64,000 nt of DNA from positions 70,308,001 to 70,372,000 of the forward strand of contig OZ287752.1 in the NCBI GenBank assembly GCA_965649765.1, in the 5' to 3' direction. Numbering within the stretch: the stretch's first letter is position 1; each line of letters opens with the position of its first letter. The position numbers and the translations under genes were made by a program. The notes below the pieces were generated by a model. The model had not been told where the DNA came from. It searched no databases and was given only the letters and a program-made list of their open reading frames with translations. This document shows, piece after piece, positions 1 through 60,044 of the stretch. This DNA comes from Bispira polyomma. Its lineage: Eukaryota.

Positions 1-49
1 ATACACAAATAGTCTCTGCCAAGGCTCCAGCTTGATATGGTGTCTTTCG

Positions 50-38400: not shown

Positions 38401-40190
38401 TTAAAAATATTCTGGAAATGCTGAATCTGCAGCTGTCAAATTAACATTCCATGCTTTCCGGCATTTAGTTGTGATGTTCAGAGCATTCAAATTCATGGCA
38501 CTTGAACATCGGACTGTGTGTGGCGATATATAACTGACTCGGCTTAAATAGTAGCTCAAGTAGCTGATTCCTTCCGCCAGGCACTACAGCATACATCCTA
38601 GTTTAAATGGTGTTTGGTAGTCTAGGACCCCTGTAAATATAATATATACAAGTATTAATGTATTGAAACAGGCAAAGATGACAGAAAATGAATTATACTG
38701 TCTGGGGGCATAATGTCACCTTACATTGGCTAGTACATAATGTACTCATCAATATAACTTAGACTGAAACTCTAAATGTAGTCAACCTTAAAAAAAATTC
38801 ACTACCTGAATTCATAGTAACCTTAACAAAATTCCTTACCTGAATTTATGGTAGCCTTAAACTAAATACTTACCTTAATCAATGGTGACCTTTTTACTGT
38901 GTTGAATATCTTAAATTGAAATTTATAAAACATGGACTTTACACCAAGAAACTGTAAAAAGCAGCGCCAAGATGCTGGCGTTTTCAGTTTTGGGGTATCG
39001 GTTTTATTTGGTCACAGTTGTTTGCAGTGTACTTTAAAAATCGATGCAATTAAAATCTTTCTACCTTTTCACAAAATCTTTACAGAATAAACAACTTCAA
39101 AATATCCACTCTCCTCGTCCCTTGTTAACCTATTTTTGTTAGTTTCAGATTGAATCAGACAATATTAAGATTAGCAGTGATCCCTACAACTAAAGTCCTG
39201 TATTGTACATCCCTGTGATATGACAGGCACATTCGCAAATTCAGTGTTGAAGCCTGTTCAAGATCACCTGACAGATGTAGCAACATCAGTTTACCATTAC
39301 TGGGCTTACGTATTTGGCTATGACGAATTATAACAGCTAGGGGCGGGAAGTCAACACTGTGATTGTACACCCTGCACACATCTGGGATATTTACTGCTGC
39401 TATTGTGATTAGTGCATCATCATGTTTTATATTGTAGTTAAATGTAAAGTTTATTTGACCAAATAAGACTGTTGCAGATGAGCTAGAGTGGAAAATTTCG
39501 ATTTAAAGGACATTACAAATTGGTTGTCAAACCATTTTACTCAGGCTGGTTACACTTAAAAGACTTGTGGTGTAGTGTATGCATGGCTAACACTCGAGAA
39601 TACCACTTAACCGTGCTAAGGATTCTCAACTAACAAGATGTTGCTACATTTGTCAGATGACCTCAAACAGGCTTCAACCTAAAGAGCGTTTGTTGGTCTT
39701 TTCAGAGAAAGTAAAATAAAGAACTATAACTAAGTCATTTTATGCTTTTTACAACATTTTATATTATACATATTCATATATAAGCACCAATTTTTTTATT
39801 ATTTTTACATAGTGGTCTGGGACATCTCATGACCATATGCAAATATAATATATTCAAGTATTAATGTATTAAAACAGGGAAAGATGACAGAAAATAAATT
39901 GTACTGTCTCAGGACATAAGATCACCTTATATTGGGTAGTATATAATCGACCCATTAATATAACTTAGACTGAAACTCTAAATTTAGTCAACCTTAAAAA
40001 AAATTAACTACCTGAATTTATTGTAACCTTAAACTAAATACTTACCTTAATTAATGATGACTTTATGCCCCCTACAGCTGACCGTGAACTGTCGATAAAA
40101 ACATTAGAATTTAATTTTTTTTGTTTTTAGTATTAGCAGTAATATAGTATATAAATAAATATAATATAAATTGTAACATTCAAATTTGAG
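35470..40190 (+). mobile_element. Ngaro-like YR retrotransposon (copy 2), 5'-truncated, with split direct repeats B1-A2-spacer-B2
   Basis: RT DIDLLGLKW..DRSLPFG..YIDDY; RNase H IELDACL, FKCDNIAVV; YR FLRLSNL, KWSK, HAFR, VWRYI; no methyltransferase between RH and YR. B1 ~38640-38952 is repeated as B2 from ~39840; A2 ~38953-39100 matches the 5' end of copy 3. Confidence 0.85.
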
Positions 40191-52062: not shown

Positions 52063-52234
52063 AGTAGTTACCTAACTGTACATTTAGTTGTGTTAGAAAA
52101 TGTTCTAGAATACATTCAGCACTTAGTAACTGCAGTATACGAGTCATCACAACACTGCACTGCATATACTGTCATTTATGTTGTTATAAGCGGGGAAAAA
52201 GTAATAGTGTAGAAGTAATCAAACATATCGTAAC

Positions 52235-52690
52235 TTTAAACTCATTATAATGACTTTTAATCTTAGGAGTTTAAGGCCACCATACAATAGGGTTTATCAT
52301 CAGGTCCATATACATCTGTGTACCAAATATAAATGAAATCGATGAAGCAGCTTTGGAATTAGAGTCCGGAATAACTGAAACATGGTGTAACCTGAAAGTC
52401 GTCAGAAATTTTAAGTGTTGAGGTCTATATACATCTGTGTACCAAATATGAATAAAATCCATCAAGCGGTTTTGGAGTTAGAGTCTGGAATGACTAAAAG
52501 ATGCTGTAATCTTAAAGTCATCATAAAACTTTAACTGTTAGGAGTTTAGGTCACCATACAATAGGGTTCCTCCTAATGTTTATATACATCTGTGTACTAA
52601 ATATAAATGAAATCCATCGAGCGGTTTTGGAGTTAGAGTCGGAAACGAAAGCCTGACGACGACAACAGACGATGAACAAAGCCACCAGAG
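52235..52690 (+). mobile_element. Helentron-associated (HINE/pearl-like) element with internal tandem repeats
   Basis: Three units of ATATACATCTGTGTAC.AAATAT...GAAATC..TTTGGA.TTAGAGTC followed by a GAC-type microsatellite. Confidence 0.6.
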
Positions 52691-53507
52691 CATGAAAAAC
52701 AAAAAAGGTGCAATGTTGTTTTTAATTGATCATAAATATATATGCAAAGTTATTACCTAAAACATAATGTATTAATCTTCCCTCTGTATGTTTGCATAAA
52801 AATCACCTTTCTACATTTAGGATTGAAACTAATACAATTCATTGCTACTAAAATGATAAACAAATAAAAGTTCAATATTAATTTTCTTGAAATTCACACA
52901 AAACTGAGTAATTTATATTAAATGATTTAAGTACCTTAATGGTTTTTAAAATAATCAAAAAATATATGACCTTGACACAGACATTTTGCAGATTCTTTTT
53001 ATATAAAATTTATCTTTGTATATTTTTTTTACCAAAGGAGAGACAATATAATAGAACCTATGTTTTCCCCAAAAAAATGTATTGTCGACTCGTTCACTGC
53101 ATTGTGTGTTGTATAGCATATACAAACTATTGTACAGTTACGGATGGCAGTATTAACAGATTAGGATGAAATACTTCAATGTGTACATGATTTCTACACC
53201 AATCTCTTCGCTGAAAGACAGAAAATCGTGACTTGAAATTTGTACCAAACTTAAATTTCAAAACCCTTGAAGAAATAATATCAGAAAAATTGGAAGGGCC
53301 AATTACAACAAGCGAGTTAAGTAAGGCACTAAAACACATGAAACATTTTAAAACACCCGGCATAGACAGTTTTCCTGCCGATTTTTTTAAAGTTTTTTGG
53401 GGTTCAGATTTAAGTTCATTATTACCAAAGCTGTTAATGTATGAAAAAGGCCTTGTGTTTGAAACTATGCGTACCTGTATTGTCACTTTTCTTCCTAATG
53501 GGCCAGT

Positions 53508-54053
53508 CCCACCGGATTTACATTAGGATATGTAAGTACGCATGGCCTGTAAAATATTTGATGCAAAACGTCATGCAAAACTCAAAATTGGTGATTTTTC
53601 CAACGTTGAAGGGGCCAACAGACGTTAAAATTCATGTATTAGTACGTCAAAAGCTGTAACGTCTTGCAGGGGATGCATAAGTTCACGTCCAAGTACGTAT
53701 TTGAACCCTCGTAAGACATGTATGAGTATGTCAATACACGTTGAAGGCCGTCATTTGTGACGTTTAAGTACGTTTGACTACTTCAAACCACATCATTCAT
53801 GCATTGTGACGCACATAGCCGTTACACTACGCGAACTGTCACAATGTTCACGCTAAAATTCACACTTAAGTACGTCAAATTTTGCAGCTTTTGCAAGTCC
53901 AAATTTCAAACGGTTTGAAAGTACAAATTTGTTGCATCTCATCTCTCACGCCCGGTTATGTATGTTCATGTATGTTACGTCAGCTCCAGCAAATACGATG
54001 CAAAACCTACGCAAATTATTTTTTAAACAACTCCTAACGTGACGGCTGGTGGG
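53508..54053. mobile_element. MITE with CCCAC termini
   Basis: CCCACCGGATTTACATTAGGA and TCCTAACGTGACGGCTGGTGGG form imperfect TIRs; ACGT-rich interior; interrupts LINE ORF2. Superfamily uncertain (possibly EnSpm/CMC-like). Confidence 0.65.
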
Positions 54054-55084
54054 ATAATAAAGGTAATAAGCCAGGTCAATATTTGAAAAATTGGAGACCT
54101 CTATCCATGCTTTCAGTTGTATACAAAATGACTTAAAATTTGTCAGTTTGCTGATGACACCTTTTTTTTTCTTTTTCTTAATGGAACACAGACATCCCTT
54201 CAGGCAGCACTTAATACTTTTGGTTCGGTTTCAGGTCTCCATATGAATACAACCAAAATTAAAGTAATCTGGATTGGAAGAAAAAAATTCTTTAAAGATA
54301 AATTAAGAGTAAGTCTAAAATCAGATCGGGGGAACACTCGTTTCACTCTGTTGGGATTAGCTTTTGACATAAATCTGAATGACATGATTCCTCTAAATTT
54401 TGACAAAAGCATCTTTCAGATAAAAAATACATTACAACAATGGTCAGAAAGAAAAATAACACCAACAGGAATAATCACAACTGTAACAATATTGGCACTG
54501 TCTAAACTCAGTTCCCCAGTGTAGCCGTCTTATTTAATAGTATGTAAGCTTGCATAACCAAGTAAAAGATTGCGGTTTAAAATTTTATTAGGTACTAATA
54601 TGTTAGGGCTACTACTTAGTATATATACAGTTCTAAGGTTAGGGCATAAGGTCACCTTAAATGTAAGCATTTTGAAATTACTAAGGTTGCCTTAAACTGA
54701 GAATAAGGCAACCACAAATACACTTTTAAATCTATAATTCAGTTAAGGCTAGCTTGATCTGAAGTTTCGTGTCAAGCTTAAGTTAAGTCTACCAGTGACT
54801 TAACTAAAATTTAAGGTTAGGTTAAGCCAAGAAAGAGACACGTTGAGTTTAAGGTTGCAGTAAGTCAACCATGTGAATTAGTAAGGTAGACTTAAATGTA
54901 AGTAGAATTTGAGATTATTAAATCAAATTTGAGACAAAAGAATACATTATGTACTGTGTTATGTAAGGTGACCTTATGCCCAGTACAGTAATATGGTTAC
55001 TGTAAGTTTCTATTTAAATACATTAATATATGAACATGTTCTCTGAGACTGTCACATAAGATGTGGCAGACCACCAAACCCAGA

Positions 55085-56050
55085 TCATGACGAAGTACGT
55101 AGGGCTGCAGAGTTAGCGTCAGATACCTGGGAACCAGCAATAGGTGAGTCTGTAATGTATCTCCACACACAGTCCGACGTCCAGGTGCCATTAGATTTGG
55201 ACATTATTATTAAAAGCAAAGGTGGTACCTGAACGTCGAAAAGCATGGAAGGTGAGGTTTGAATTTTGTAAGCCCAGCATCTGTAATACAATCTTGAGAG
55301 GGCGTCTGACCCGGGTGTGAGTAAGAGGGATCCAGGAAGCCAAAAGCTTAAACTGAAACAAAGAAAAATTTGAACCAGTAGGAGTAATGGCCAACAAGTT
55401 CTTCAAGGCTGTAACTGGACATAAAATTGAATTAGACAAAGCTGGTAAGGTGATGAGTCACACCGCATTGTTGGTTTGCATTGTTTTGGACCACTTTACC
55501 AGTACAACTGCGTAACCAGGCTTGAACATGAAATCGCCTCTGGCGAGATGTTTAAGAGGTGAAAAATCATTTACTGAGTGGGGACATAGATTTGAGAGTC
55601 GTAGAAAGCTAAAGAAACTGGTAAGGTAAACAGCCTTGAAGACTTGGCCCATATACAAATAGTTACATTTCTGAACTAAAGCACTAAGCAGAGGTATGTC
55701 AAAAATACATTTTAAGTTAACTTGCAAAGGTCTATTTACTAGTAAGGCTTTAGTAAAGTATGAAATTCGTGGATCAGAAAAGACATTTACATGGAACAAG
55801 ATGCACTTAGCTTTGATGGCCGACAAGTGATTTGCAATCTGAGAGGGTGATACAGCATTAAAATTCAAAAATTCTAAATATGCAAGAATGTTAAAAACGT
55901 TCACCTGGGTGGGGGTCCATTTCATGAAGACCCCAAAAGCCAGAAAATGTCTGTACATGCTCTCATAGGCTTTAGCTGTTGAAACAGCGAAAGCTAAATG
56001 CAATCTCTGGCAAGCCATCTTTGTCAGCATCCTATCCATGGGATTTGTTG
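55085..56050 (-). pseudogene. Tyrosine recombinase of Ngaro copy 3
   Basis: Catalytic motifs FLRLSNL (R), KWSKT (K), FHAFRR (HxxR), GTW and VWRYI (Y); lesions near 55458 and 55191. Confidence 0.9.
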
Positions 56051-56099
56051 CTTAAATACATAAAACTAGGGGTACTTATTCTATATATTATTATCCACC

Positions 56100-57945
56100 T
56101 GCAATAAAGTGTGGTCAGTATCTAACCAAACTACAGGGCTTGCCAAAGTAGCCCAAATTTTTTCATTATTTTTGGTTTTGTCCCACCTAGACTATAAGTC
56201 GGTTATATTGTTATTAACGCCTAGTATATGTACAACTTTGATGTCTATATTGAAATGACTAGCCCACATGTATATATTGCAAGTATAAGTAGCCAATATT
56301 GGATCTTTTGTTCGCCCCGTTTCTAAGACACTGACCACAGCTTATTTGTCGCATTTGAACAATACTTGGAATCCACGCCAGGCTTCAGCCCACAATTTTA
56401 AGGCTACTAATATATTTAGCATCTCTAGTGCCGCAATATTATGATGAGACATATGGGTAGGGACTAGTAATTTGTATATTTTCGCATTGACGGGAGTGTG
56501 ATTAAAGAAAGAAACTCTATTAAATTGATTTATAAATGTGATAAACCACCTAAGGTCCCTGGTGAATTCTTCAGTAAGAGGAAATCTATTCTTGCTGTGA
56601 TTATCTCTTAACAGGGCTAACATCCGATTAGGATATACTCTAACATATCTAATACATTTTGCCACATATAGTGGAGACCCTAGTAAAGACTGAAGCTCTT
56701 TTTTGGTACAATACTTTTTTACTTCTCCATCTGACGCATATATCTTTTATTTCCTGCAATTTTTCAATGGGAATAGAAGTAGTAAATTTCACAGTATCAA
56801 TACTTATACCCAGACATATAACCACAGTATTAGGAGGCGCTAATTTTTTCTTGCTGACTGTAAGTCCTAGCTCAGATAGCAGTACTTGCAAGCGTTGGTA
56901 AGTCTTGACGATTTTATTCAGGAGCGAGATGCATAAAAAATCATCCAAATAATTGTGGACATTATGACCTTTGGAGTGCATTATGTATCTGACTGCGTCT
57001 GAAATTCTCTAGAAGATAGTACTCCCATTTTGATAACTGAACAGGAGTGACTTATCTATAAAATAAGAACCCCACTTCAGGCCTAACAAATCAATGTCCC
57101 CAGGATCAATGGGCACGTGTCTAAATGCCCTACTAATGTCAATTTTGAATATTTTACAACCTCTCCCCAGTTTGAGTACCTCATTTGTTAAATTGTCAAT
57201 AGAAGGATCAGACAGTATAAAATGTGTACCCAAGTATGTGGTGGGTGAAGCACCAGCGTTAACTGATTGGCCCTTCGGCCAGCTCTGATCAACAATGACC
57301 AGCCTATTACTCAAAGTTGTTTTTGTGCGTGTCATCACTGGTGAGAAATGAAGGTTTTTGATCAGAGGGTCCATAAATGGCCCGAGCATTGCTTCATAAT
57401 CACATTTTCCTTCAAATAGAAATCGACGTATTCAGGAAATTCCAAGGCGAATTTGTGATTGAGCCACGCTGATTGGCTGATATTGTCCAAGCACACTAAA
57501 TCTATTAGCCGTGTCAGCCTGCAATTGATTGTTTTGTTTGTTGGAATCATTTGAACTTCTACTTTTGTTAACAAAGAGAGGAACCTGAGTTTTGGCAATA
57601 GCTTGTGGTTTTTTTGATTCTCACCTTGTGTGTGTGCCTTACTCTGGTCGCCTCCATTGTTGTTTTATTTACATTTCTTGGGGAAGCTTTGCACCCCAAT
57701 TTTTGATGTACAAGGTTAGAATTAGTACTAGTATTTTTATGTACACTTTGTGATACGCTACTATCCATATACTTACTGCTACTACGCGGTTTAACCACGA
57801 CTTCGCTGTAACTACACTGGCTTGTTATACCTCTATTATATGTACACATCTTTTTAATCACCGACTTGTCAAACAAGTGAAATGATTGAAAACCATTTTT
57901 ATATACAGTGCGACTAAAAATTCGCTTCATACTTTTTTCGCCCAC
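56100..57945 (-). pseudogene. RT/RNase H ORF of Ngaro copy 3
   Basis: MLGPF, SPVMTR, KIDISRAFRHVPIDP, NYLDDF, LGISIDT, NIAALEMLN, FKCD; broken frames. Confidence 0.88.
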
Positions 57946-57965
57946 TGCATCGCTGCAGTGGCCCC

Positions 57966-58963
57966 TTAGTTGTTTGATCCCTTCTTGTTACAAACCGAGT
58001 TTTTGTGGCTAGCTCCACACGCCTCACACACATGTTTAAAGTAGGTATTCCCAGTTTTGTGATTATTCTGGTGCTTATATGTACCTTCTTGAAAGAATTT
58101 ACAGTTTGCCGAATTTTGCTTACCACTGACAGTTGTCTTAGTACCAGTTTTACTGTTTTCCTGGCTAGCACTACTAGAAATATGCCTTTGGGCATGAGCC
58201 CTTCTTAATCGATCTATCTTATCGACCTCTGTCCACTTTAACTTGTCCATCTCCATAGTGGAGAGAATGACAGCATGACACGCTTTGGCCGACTCCCATC
58301 AAATTAGCCATGTATTCCAACATTATTTCACGAATTTCTGTGGATTTCTCATCTTGAATTATTCTAGTGAATCCACAGACCCACTGATTGAGAGTTAAAT
58401 CGTCATAACTTGGATGAGTTTTCAAACTTCCAAAAAGGACATGATTTTGTGGCCATTCGACTAATTTTCTAACTAGAACGTCAGTAGCCCCCTCTTTGGC
58501 ATTTAAGCTTACCTTGGGTCAGATTCTCGTTCAAAGTTTTTAATTCAACTAATCTCTGTTCTACTTGTGTTTGAATAGCCGAGTTTTTCTTTAGGAATTC
58601 AACAGTAGGAATAACACTATCACTGGAACTAGCTTCAATACTCGGTTCGATTATAGAATTGACAGAAAGAGAACTACTACCCACCTGATTTTTGGTGAGG
58701 TCTTCCGCTATCGATTCCGCCGTGAGCTGTACTCGTTGGTCCATCCTCTCCATCATTTCAGCCATGGATTGCAATTGTGTCAGAATTTGTCGAGAAATAT
58801 GATCGCCCTGAACTGGAGAGGAGGTAGAAGCATCACTAGAGCCGGCGACAGCCACGGATTCCTCAGACACCACAGAATAAGCACATTTTCTACCCACTGG
58901 CCTTTCATGTTTTCGACCACACTTGGAACATCTAAAATCTTTAATACTTGGCATTGTAAACAT
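57966..58963 (-). pseudogene. Gag-like ORF of Ngaro copy 3
   Basis: N-terminal CSKCGRKHERPVGRKC, central WPQ..YDDLTLNQWVCGF, C-terminal HVCEACGASH..C Cys/His motifs; internal stop at ~58481. Confidence 0.8.
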
Positions 58964-60044
58964 ATAATTAAAAGTTGAAATTAAAACACTAAAATGACTA
59001 AAACATCAAAGTGCACAAACAACAAATTTAAATCTCAACCGTTACCCACCAAGCCTATTGTTTCGAAGTTGTTCCTAGTACATGAAAGTAAGAAAGGCGG
59101 GAGAATTTGAAATGTTTTGTCTTTTATAGTAAGCCGCAACGAGGTCAATTAGCTCTTTTAGACTGGTACAATGTGAACTGAAATCGCTCGCGCCTGGGCG
59201 CTGCCTACTAAAACCATCTTTTCAAACTTTGCCTACACCATCACTGAAATACATAAATCAAATAAATTAAAGACCATGTTCTACTCTTTTATTTGGGATG
59301 GCAAACCTGACAAGATTAGCAACAACATGGATACGACGTTTATTAATTGGCCATCAATCTGCATAGGGCAAATTATTTATAAAACCGTTTCACCTGTCCA
59401 AAGTCTTGCTTCAATGGGCTCACAGTGGTGCAACAAAATCGCAAATAGGATAAGTAATGAGTTCTGGACTACAGTATTGAAAGCATGGGCAAAGGTTATT
59501 GACAAAATTGTGCCAAGGAAAAATCTTGATCTGCTTTCTTCACCATTGTGGTACAATAAACATATATCTATTGAAGAACCATATATAATTAAGTCAGACT
59601 CATCTATTTAAGCACAAGGCTGTAGTTTTGACTATATAAATTGTATTTGATACAGTAAATTAATTGAACAGTTTATCAGTTTAATATTGAAAATACAGAC
59701 GTTTATCAGTTTAATATTGAAAATACAGAAGTATCAAGTGTTTGGTTATCTTTATTGTAGATAATACTACATATACATACACATATACAAACATATACCT
59801 GTGTATACTTTTTAACTGCTATTGTATCAAACTCTTAAAAGTTTTGGTCATTATCCATGTAATGTATTTTATATGTTCTGTAAGATTAACTTATATACAA
59901 ATCCTACAGTATATTCCACTACATTACTCAGACATCAATATACAAGTATGTTATATCATAATGAGAAATATGATACAGATTGTGTAATAATAAAAACATA
60001 TAGGAAATAATGTAGACTGTGAATTTGTCCATTTATAACATTAT

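Follow-up and report, generated by a model that had tools for sequence, protein, structure and literature searches.

What does an array of short palindromes do at one end of a retrotransposon? In the stretch of Bispira polyomma DNA analysed here (64,000 nucleotides; the window), 13-bp palindromes crowd the B repeat of a Ngaro-type tyrosine-recombinase (YR) element, and the original prediction offered two answers: binding sites for the recombinase or a host factor beside the recombination junction, or a multi-hairpin RNA domain for reverse transcription.

The carrier element (Table 1) is inserted in a LINE without a target-site duplication, and its empty site is spanned by a contig of the X2 run in which 54508 is joined to the bases from 59211 onward, the sole result of a search through the contigs of X1–X3. 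It has a single B and no A2-B2, which corrects the original prediction. Within B the order is the first site with a 5-bp extension, a variable interior that contains further sites, the last site with the mirror extension, a likely poly(A) signal and a terminal hexamer; the A repeat holds a TATA-like word at A+83 (59128–59123) that would serve as part of a promoter. A G/T-rich word lies at the B start in the window (55060–55080), in families of the G000 genome and in metagenome relatives. Upstream of the Ngaro copy, another insertion breaks the host LINE (53500–54060).

A Pfam search with the seven ORF fragments of the window gave no matches, and 27 pattern matches in viral contigs included no relative. 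An intact relative, L050, encodes gag, RT/RH and then a YR that replaces the integrase; it matches RVT_1 (E = 3e-10), and its YR matches PF00589 with E = 0.002, below the cut-off. Pfam reported no methyltransferase domain in the three ORFs of L050, a scan that left out the RT-YR gap. Both A and B pairs are present in 10 of 60 diverged loci (A1-ORFs-B1-A2-spacer-B2), and the window's own family shows B1-A2-B2 in L017 and L021. In that family (L001–L030), A follows B in only 5 of 29 distinct loci, and most copies stop exactly at the B1 end; a solo A-spacer-B unit occurs at L016. Rather than arising by later recombination, the exact A-ORFs-B monomers may come straight from the element's cycle. 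Tandem (A-spacer-B)n units, 97–99.9% identical, stand behind or before elements in L092, L102 and L104, as is expected if units join at the B/A junction. In L003 and L013 a lone B sits between 43-bp direct repeats within another repeat, and in L027 and L028 a 47-bp repeat adjoins the B end.

Table 1 Coordinates of the Ngaro-type element, its palindrome array and the second copy in the window
Feature	Position	Strand	Remarks
Broken Ngaro-type YR retrotransposon, A-gag-RT/RH-YR-B	54509..59210	-	Homology of 30 loci stops at 54509 and 59210; frames broken
B repeat	54509..55076	-	B1/B2 pairs of L017 and L021 match 55076-54509
5' bracket arm, first palindromic site + 5-bp extension	54964..54981	-	20.9 bits; 83-100% identity in 10/10 other families compared
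Palindromic site	54882..54894	.	12.7 bits
Weak site	54850..54862	.	6.8 bits
Weak site	54812..54824	.	6.4 bits
9-bp inverted repeat, 7-nt spacer	54781..54805	.	One arm is the word predicted at 54784
Weak site	54744..54756	.	6.5 bits; lowest conservation of the nine
Palindromic site	54704..54716	.	13.1 bits
Palindromic site	54682..54694	.	17.4 bits
3' bracket arm, last palindromic site + 5-bp extension	54642..54659	-	20.9 bits; 78-100% identity in 10/10 other families
Likely poly(A) signal, 81 nt before B end	54584..54589	-	Other families have a like word, then a conserved block; putative function
B terminal hexamer, outer 5' arm of B/A junction fold	54509..54514	-	Crossover immediately after; copies end exactly here
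Tyrosine recombinase gene, open fragment	55458..56051	-	150 scored relatives in G000
A repeat, 152 bp	59059..59210	-	Matches A2 of L017, L020, L021 and L025 over 152 bp
A-side junction fold: 7-nt bubble strand, 6-bp inner stem, 4-nt loop, 7-nt bubble strand, outer 3' arm	59175..59210	-	11-junction alignment
Copy 2 B1 sites with interposed 34-bp tandem unit	38711..38893	+	
Copy 2 B2 sites	39917..40031	+	
Copy 2 B1/A2 junction (between 38954 and 38955), same fold layout	38949..38990	+	Outer 6/6 pairs, inner 5/6, from sequence

The palindrome has the symmetric consensus TADGGYNRCCHTA, which, like its symmetric information profile, was derived from 98 sites in 18 representatives. As an exact 13-bp word it occurs 7,312 times in the G000 genome, against 90 copies of the reversed control. 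All nine words predicted for the window are present in 54635–54985, and the 18-bp inverted repeat said to bracket them is exact (54642–54659 and 54964–54981). Under a weight matrix derived from other families (87 sites), five of the nine are strong (54647, 54682, 54704, 54882 and 54964; 12.7–20.9 bits) and three are weak (54744, 54812 and 54850; 6.4–6.8 bits); the word at 54784, with five mismatches and 2.2 bits, fails as a 13-bp site. The inverted repeat to which this last word belongs is confined to the window's family and has few changes across the aligned copies. The stretch contains five sites of at least 9 bits, whereas 500 dinucleotide shuffles gave 0.10 on average and never more than 2. 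Many near families have, after the first site, a 15-nt odd palindrome, which in the window lies about 35 nt past the 5' bracket arm (near 54942–54956, minus strand). Single strong sites (13–17 bits) also lie beyond both Ngaro copies, at 52272, 52546, 30424, 40708 and 63367, two of them inside another tandem repeat near 52230–52680.

The diverged second copy retains sites at 38711, 38847 and 38881 in B1 and at 39917 and 40019 in B2, as predicted. The description of the spacers as mostly non-repetitive holds for the window copy, whose spacers have no tandem repeat, but not for copy 2, where they consist of 2.9 copies of a 34-bp tandem unit (38779–38879). The antisense strand of this unit (38800–38880) contains words that read as strong 5' splice sites and that are likely a by-product of the half-site. 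The placement of the array beside the recombination junction needs amending as well, the actual distance from the B end being 138–467 bp.

The array is real and under selection. Among 29 copies of the window's family, changes common to two or more copies (lineage-shared) fall in 21 of 117 motif columns (18%) and in 88 of 213 spacer columns (41%; Fisher p = 1.6e-5), so that the motifs are more conserved than the spacers; in a mask-shift control restricted to changes in at least three copies, the p value is 0.009 for the nine words and 0.06 for the five strong sites. Singleton changes in the same copies are similar in motif and spacer (0.55 and 0.58 per column). The depletion of lineage-shared but not of singleton changes indicates selection during the spread of the element. 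The 3' bracket arm has no shared variant at all in the 29 copies. Between families, the bracket arms remain 78–100% identical in all 10 compared, while the interiors align at 0.48–0.55 against 0.41–0.53 for shuffles, and the span of the array ranges from 246 to 407 bp. Site number and spacing thus turn over between families, and the sites outlast alignable spacers. Another 48 loci, close copies of the families used for training, all carry at least two sites in B, at a density of 10.2 per kb compared with 0.11 per kb in coding DNA.

We placed the array on a YR tree of 47 rows, made up of 27 G000 loci and 20 of 44 metagenome loci without named reference elements. It is found in 18 of the 19 rows of one clade (45–98% identity to L050) and in L110 (31%); three further rows (L100, L109 and L093) have one site each, and L091, which like L110 is on a long branch, has two, in A. 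Sites are absent from four G000 rows and from all 20 metagenome rows, an absence that is confounded with distance (26–41% YR identity), with fewer than 400 bp available downstream in six of the 20. The array-bearing rows need only two changes on this tree, so most of them represent one inheritance, and the array persists among families whose YRs are only 31–53% identical.

The manner in which the sites vary distinguishes a protein-binding array from an array of hairpins. Although the motif is symmetric, its halves do not covary: across 92 sites, 412 pairs are kept compared with 412.8 after permutation, and two-sided changes number 6 against 7.0. The centre base does not bias the sites to left or right (p = 0.34 and 0.84), both halves decay alike, and A.C exceeds G.T within sites, 41 to 25. 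Complementarity between sites is no higher within a family than across families (9.89 versus 9.95), and the inner sites, taken with their flanks, are preferentially in direct orientation (p = 0.0008). Of the 59 distances between neighbours, seven equal one helical turn (11 bp), and such neighbours share two bases; over all spacings, helical phasing was not significant beyond these 11-bp pairs. The lack of covariation between halves means that the palindromes are not hairpins, and the multi-hairpin RNA of the original prediction is unsupported both within and between sites. Symmetric degeneracy of this kind looks like that of sites for a dimeric protein on double-stranded DNA, and the proposal of a protein-binding array fits it.

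We therefore favour, with a probability of roughly 0.5, an enhancer-like array bound by a predicted dimeric host factor, likely a transcription factor; taking all readings together, the array quite probably works through protein bound to DNA. The predicted host protein would bind the palindromes in double-stranded form, making the array an enhancer for the element, comparable to the repeated sites in an LTR's U3. Where the repeats are split, A2 directly follows B1, and A1 would be preceded by B if the intermediate is circular or tandem; this places the sites ~220–550 bp upstream of the TATA-like word of A. In an integrated copy the sites would act on A1 from ~4 kb downstream. Weighing in favour of a host factor, the same word is kept across YR identities from 31% upward.

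The same sites also occur outside Ngaro elements. In a 3.6-kb TG..CA LTR family (Gypsy), all 12 copies examined, out of 40 scored, carry one to three sites at +706 to +797, within a ~44-bp unit beside a CCAAT word. Nine of the 12 have 4-bp target duplications, and an Integrase_p58_C match (E = 1e-12) adjoins the LTR in L173. The Gypsy-type solo LTRs of ~3.6 kb with the palindrome are L173:4292-7858 and L202–L213, one of which has received the Ngaro copy of L031 as an insertion. Compared with 78 B regions, the site-bearing stretch of the LTR has a best match of 39 bp. This is the only non-YR element family found with the array, which the LTR could have captured long ago from a B repeat. Of 24 loci chosen for an exact site, 8 match the B-end profile and 2 are the LTR, the remainder not being classed by profile; by eye, more of them are Ngaro B repeats. 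Of two other families, L171 resembles a B repeat by eye and L189 was left unplaced. That most classified exact-site loci are Ngaro B repeats counts against a host factor. A cluster of eight sites at L172:4831-5532, for which no second copy was found in G000, may be a regulatory region of the host or a remnant of great age. The two sites of L091 lie upstream of CCAAT and TATA-like words.

The word has partial resemblances to known binding sites. A thyroid-receptor-type half-site is contained in those sites with a C or G centre (60 of 92), yet two overlapping halves are not known as a receptor geometry. Look-alikes among RFX, NF-kB, SIX, telomere-repeat and U1/splice-site words are probably a poor fit to the 13-bp word. 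A nuclear receptor bound as a monomer was considered and rejected, given the absence of asymmetry by centre base, the overlapping halves and the lack of DR, IR or ER spacing. The relevant part of one report (PMC2045677) describes an invertebrate thyroid receptor that binds an 8-bp half-site in monomeric form, and it is the half-site of that gel-shift probe that lies within our C- or G-centred sites; here, by contrast, both halves are kept.

Alternatively, the element's own YR, or another of its proteins, could use the sites for loading or as accessory sites that gather recombinase near the B end before the B/A cut, a reading that we judge unlikely. Their concentration in B (10.2 versus 0.11 per kb) speaks for it, as does the start of A, which from 2 nt past the crossover matches motif positions 1–9 with 7.7–10.7 bits in L041, L059, L081, L101 and L107 (at best 10.7 of 14.8 bits) and has no match in two array-poor families (-19.7 and -17.7); in the window's own family, however, the A start scores only -1.4. 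In L107 the crossover is preceded, 24 nt away, by a full site, and in the family of L101 both the sites and the A start have shifted towards G runs. Because the A-start match also lies ~80 bp upstream of the TATA-like word, it fits the host-factor and the YR readings alike. The core sites of YRs such as Cre, Xer and lambda Int need a 6–8-bp overlap region, whereas this palindrome has a 6-1-6 layout with a centre of 1 bp and lies 138–467 bp from the crossover. The word is also constant over YRs that are 31–100% identical, whereas the junction arms change, and it recurs in an LTR that uses an integrase.

A structural model of the L050 YR (pLDDT 83) points the same way. It has a Cre/Xer-like fold composed of core-binding and catalytic domains, and aligns with Cre (Z 17.7, rmsd 3.6, 270 aligned, residues 26–323), an archaeal Xer (Z 16.0) and an integron integrase (2a3v; Z 15.9, rmsd 3.6, 248 aligned), the last of which is not among the Foldseek matches listed for the model. 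The matched domains cover residues 26–346 with no further N-terminal domain, and the probable start Met is residue 20, so the modelled protein appears to hold these two domains only and no arm-binding domain. Recombinase arm or core sites, as originally proposed, are thus disfavoured by geometry, distance, the two-domain model and the Gypsy LTR. Compared with lambda Int, Cre and Xer systems overall, the array shares short inverted symmetry and the element shares the YR fold; the array differs in its 1-bp centre, the missing overlap region and its distance from the crossover, and the modelled YR differs in its apparent lack of an arm-binding domain.

A fold that does covary was missed by the original prediction and is located at the B/A crossover itself, not in the array. 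In 11 gapless junctions (11 of 15 in alignment A3, with L059, L081, L101 and L100 left out) the layout is a 6-bp outer stem, a 7-nt bubble, a 6-bp inner stem and a 4-nt loop, and the B terminal hexamer pairs with A+31..36 with compensatory changes. Paired cells amount to 95.5%, 7 of the 12 pairs show two-sided change, none of 500 shuffles scores as high, a test possibly inflated by related sequences, and slid registers do not come near. Facing bubble positions are unpaired in 44 of 66 cases; a bulge is absent from the 11 junctions, and no fixed extrahelical base is seen. In the window copy the inner stem is partly decayed. By eye, array-less metagenome relatives have a like fold in seven loci. 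Copies terminate exactly at the edge of the outer stem, where the crossover lies, and the host sequence that follows is variable: across 25 B ends its first base is A in 13, T in 9, C in 2 and G in 1.

Integron attC sites have two stems, an unpaired spacer and extrahelical bases, and recombine as folded single strands through IntI-type recombinases that carry an insert. By analogy, the stem-bubble-stem fold resembles attC: two stems flank an unpaired 7-nt region, pairing is kept while sequence is free, the crossover is at the stem edge, and target homology is not seen. It differs from attC in having no fixed extrahelical base, and the modelled YR ranks Cre (17.7) above the integron integrase (15.9). 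The ratio of G.T to A.C at the junction is 7 to 1, a bias that points to the sense strand, so an RNA signal is possible; such a signal for reverse transcription fits the junction fold as well as the attC-like reading does. The array and fold could be united in a permuted LTR, in which the array would load the element's own recombinase, or its host partner, and a folded, attC-like single-stranded B/A junction would be cut at the stem edge without target homology. We find this combination doubtful; if true, it would provide the first substrate and accessory sites for a recombinase of the DIRS order, and the family would have spread perfect sites by the thousand across the genome of an animal.

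The array might also act as RNA, which we consider quite unlikely. The 18-bp arms would close a fold in the 3' untranslated RNA or in single-stranded cDNA, ahead of the poly(A) signal, with a role in 3'-end control, packaging or template switching, and the inner palindromes would pair mutually or between RNA copies. The array stretch of the window does fold, its arms pairing, with an energy of -93.8 kcal/mol (z = -6.1); of 12 families, 10 form 12–18 outer-arm pairs and the other two form 8 and 0. When the sites are kept and the spacers shuffled, z stays at -0.9 to -4.7, values inflated by the use of a single-base shuffle with 15 rounds; and the arms have one candidate two-sided change (L031, L038 and L077), possibly one event on the tree. 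However, any palindrome array folds, both strands fold alike, and the sites lack covariation and favour A.C over G.T, as described above. The centre pair of the arms is broken in 5 of 11 families, and most arm columns are invariant and hence uninformative. Finally, it is very unlikely that a silencing or chromatin protein of the host binds the sites, or that they are leftovers of tandem duplication with no use to the element, for although tandem units do carry sites (copy 2, 34 bp; the LTR, ~44 bp; L170, 96 bp; L188, 28 bp), selection depleted the lineage-shared and not the singleton changes, the sites outlast alignable spacers, and a site that only represses should be lost from an element.

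The enhancer-like array bound by a host factor invites comparison with the U3 enhancer repeats of LTR retroelements. In both, short sites are repeated ahead of a TATA-like word, and their number and spacing turn over; the order is permuted here (array, poly(A) signal, end, then promoter), and the enhancer role is putative. The element itself belongs to a known kind, and the array is a selected cis-element within it. For Ngaro elements of the DIRS order, the relevant sections of four papers describe an A1-ORFs-B1-A2-B2 layout (PMC9210276, PMC8547959, PMC13465315, PMC6681497). Such elements also have RT/RH followed by YR, integration without target duplication and solo A-B units, and the window's family shares these split repeats, gene order, lack of target duplication and solo units. 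It differs in that most copies end at B1 and in that B, with its selected array, is 520–670 bp long in most array-bearing families, compared with the 152 bp given for Xenopus DIRS-53_XT in the section concerned of PMC9210276.

A literature search that excluded the founding Goodwin and Poulter papers, Repbase and supplements found no description of a Ngaro array, nothing on this junction hairpin for Ngaro and, by title, nothing on the terminal sites of YR elements. The combination of half-site word, palindrome and retrotransposon was unmatched there, and spellings of the motif matched only unrelated plant work. The anatomy of the array in Ngaro thus appears undescribed. The pertinent passage of PMC7192593 has DIRS-1 cDNA as single-stranded and states the specificity of the DIRS YR as unexamined.

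Transcription and integration in the DIRS order have been little tested, and the 13-bp site matrix and the junction fold are direct substrates for assays of both. If the array is only an enhancer, the principle is ordinary. If a host factor does bind it, one factor would be common to two unrelated classes of retroelement, and the ~7,300 perfect sites, many of them element-borne, would form a large pool of mobile regulatory sites.
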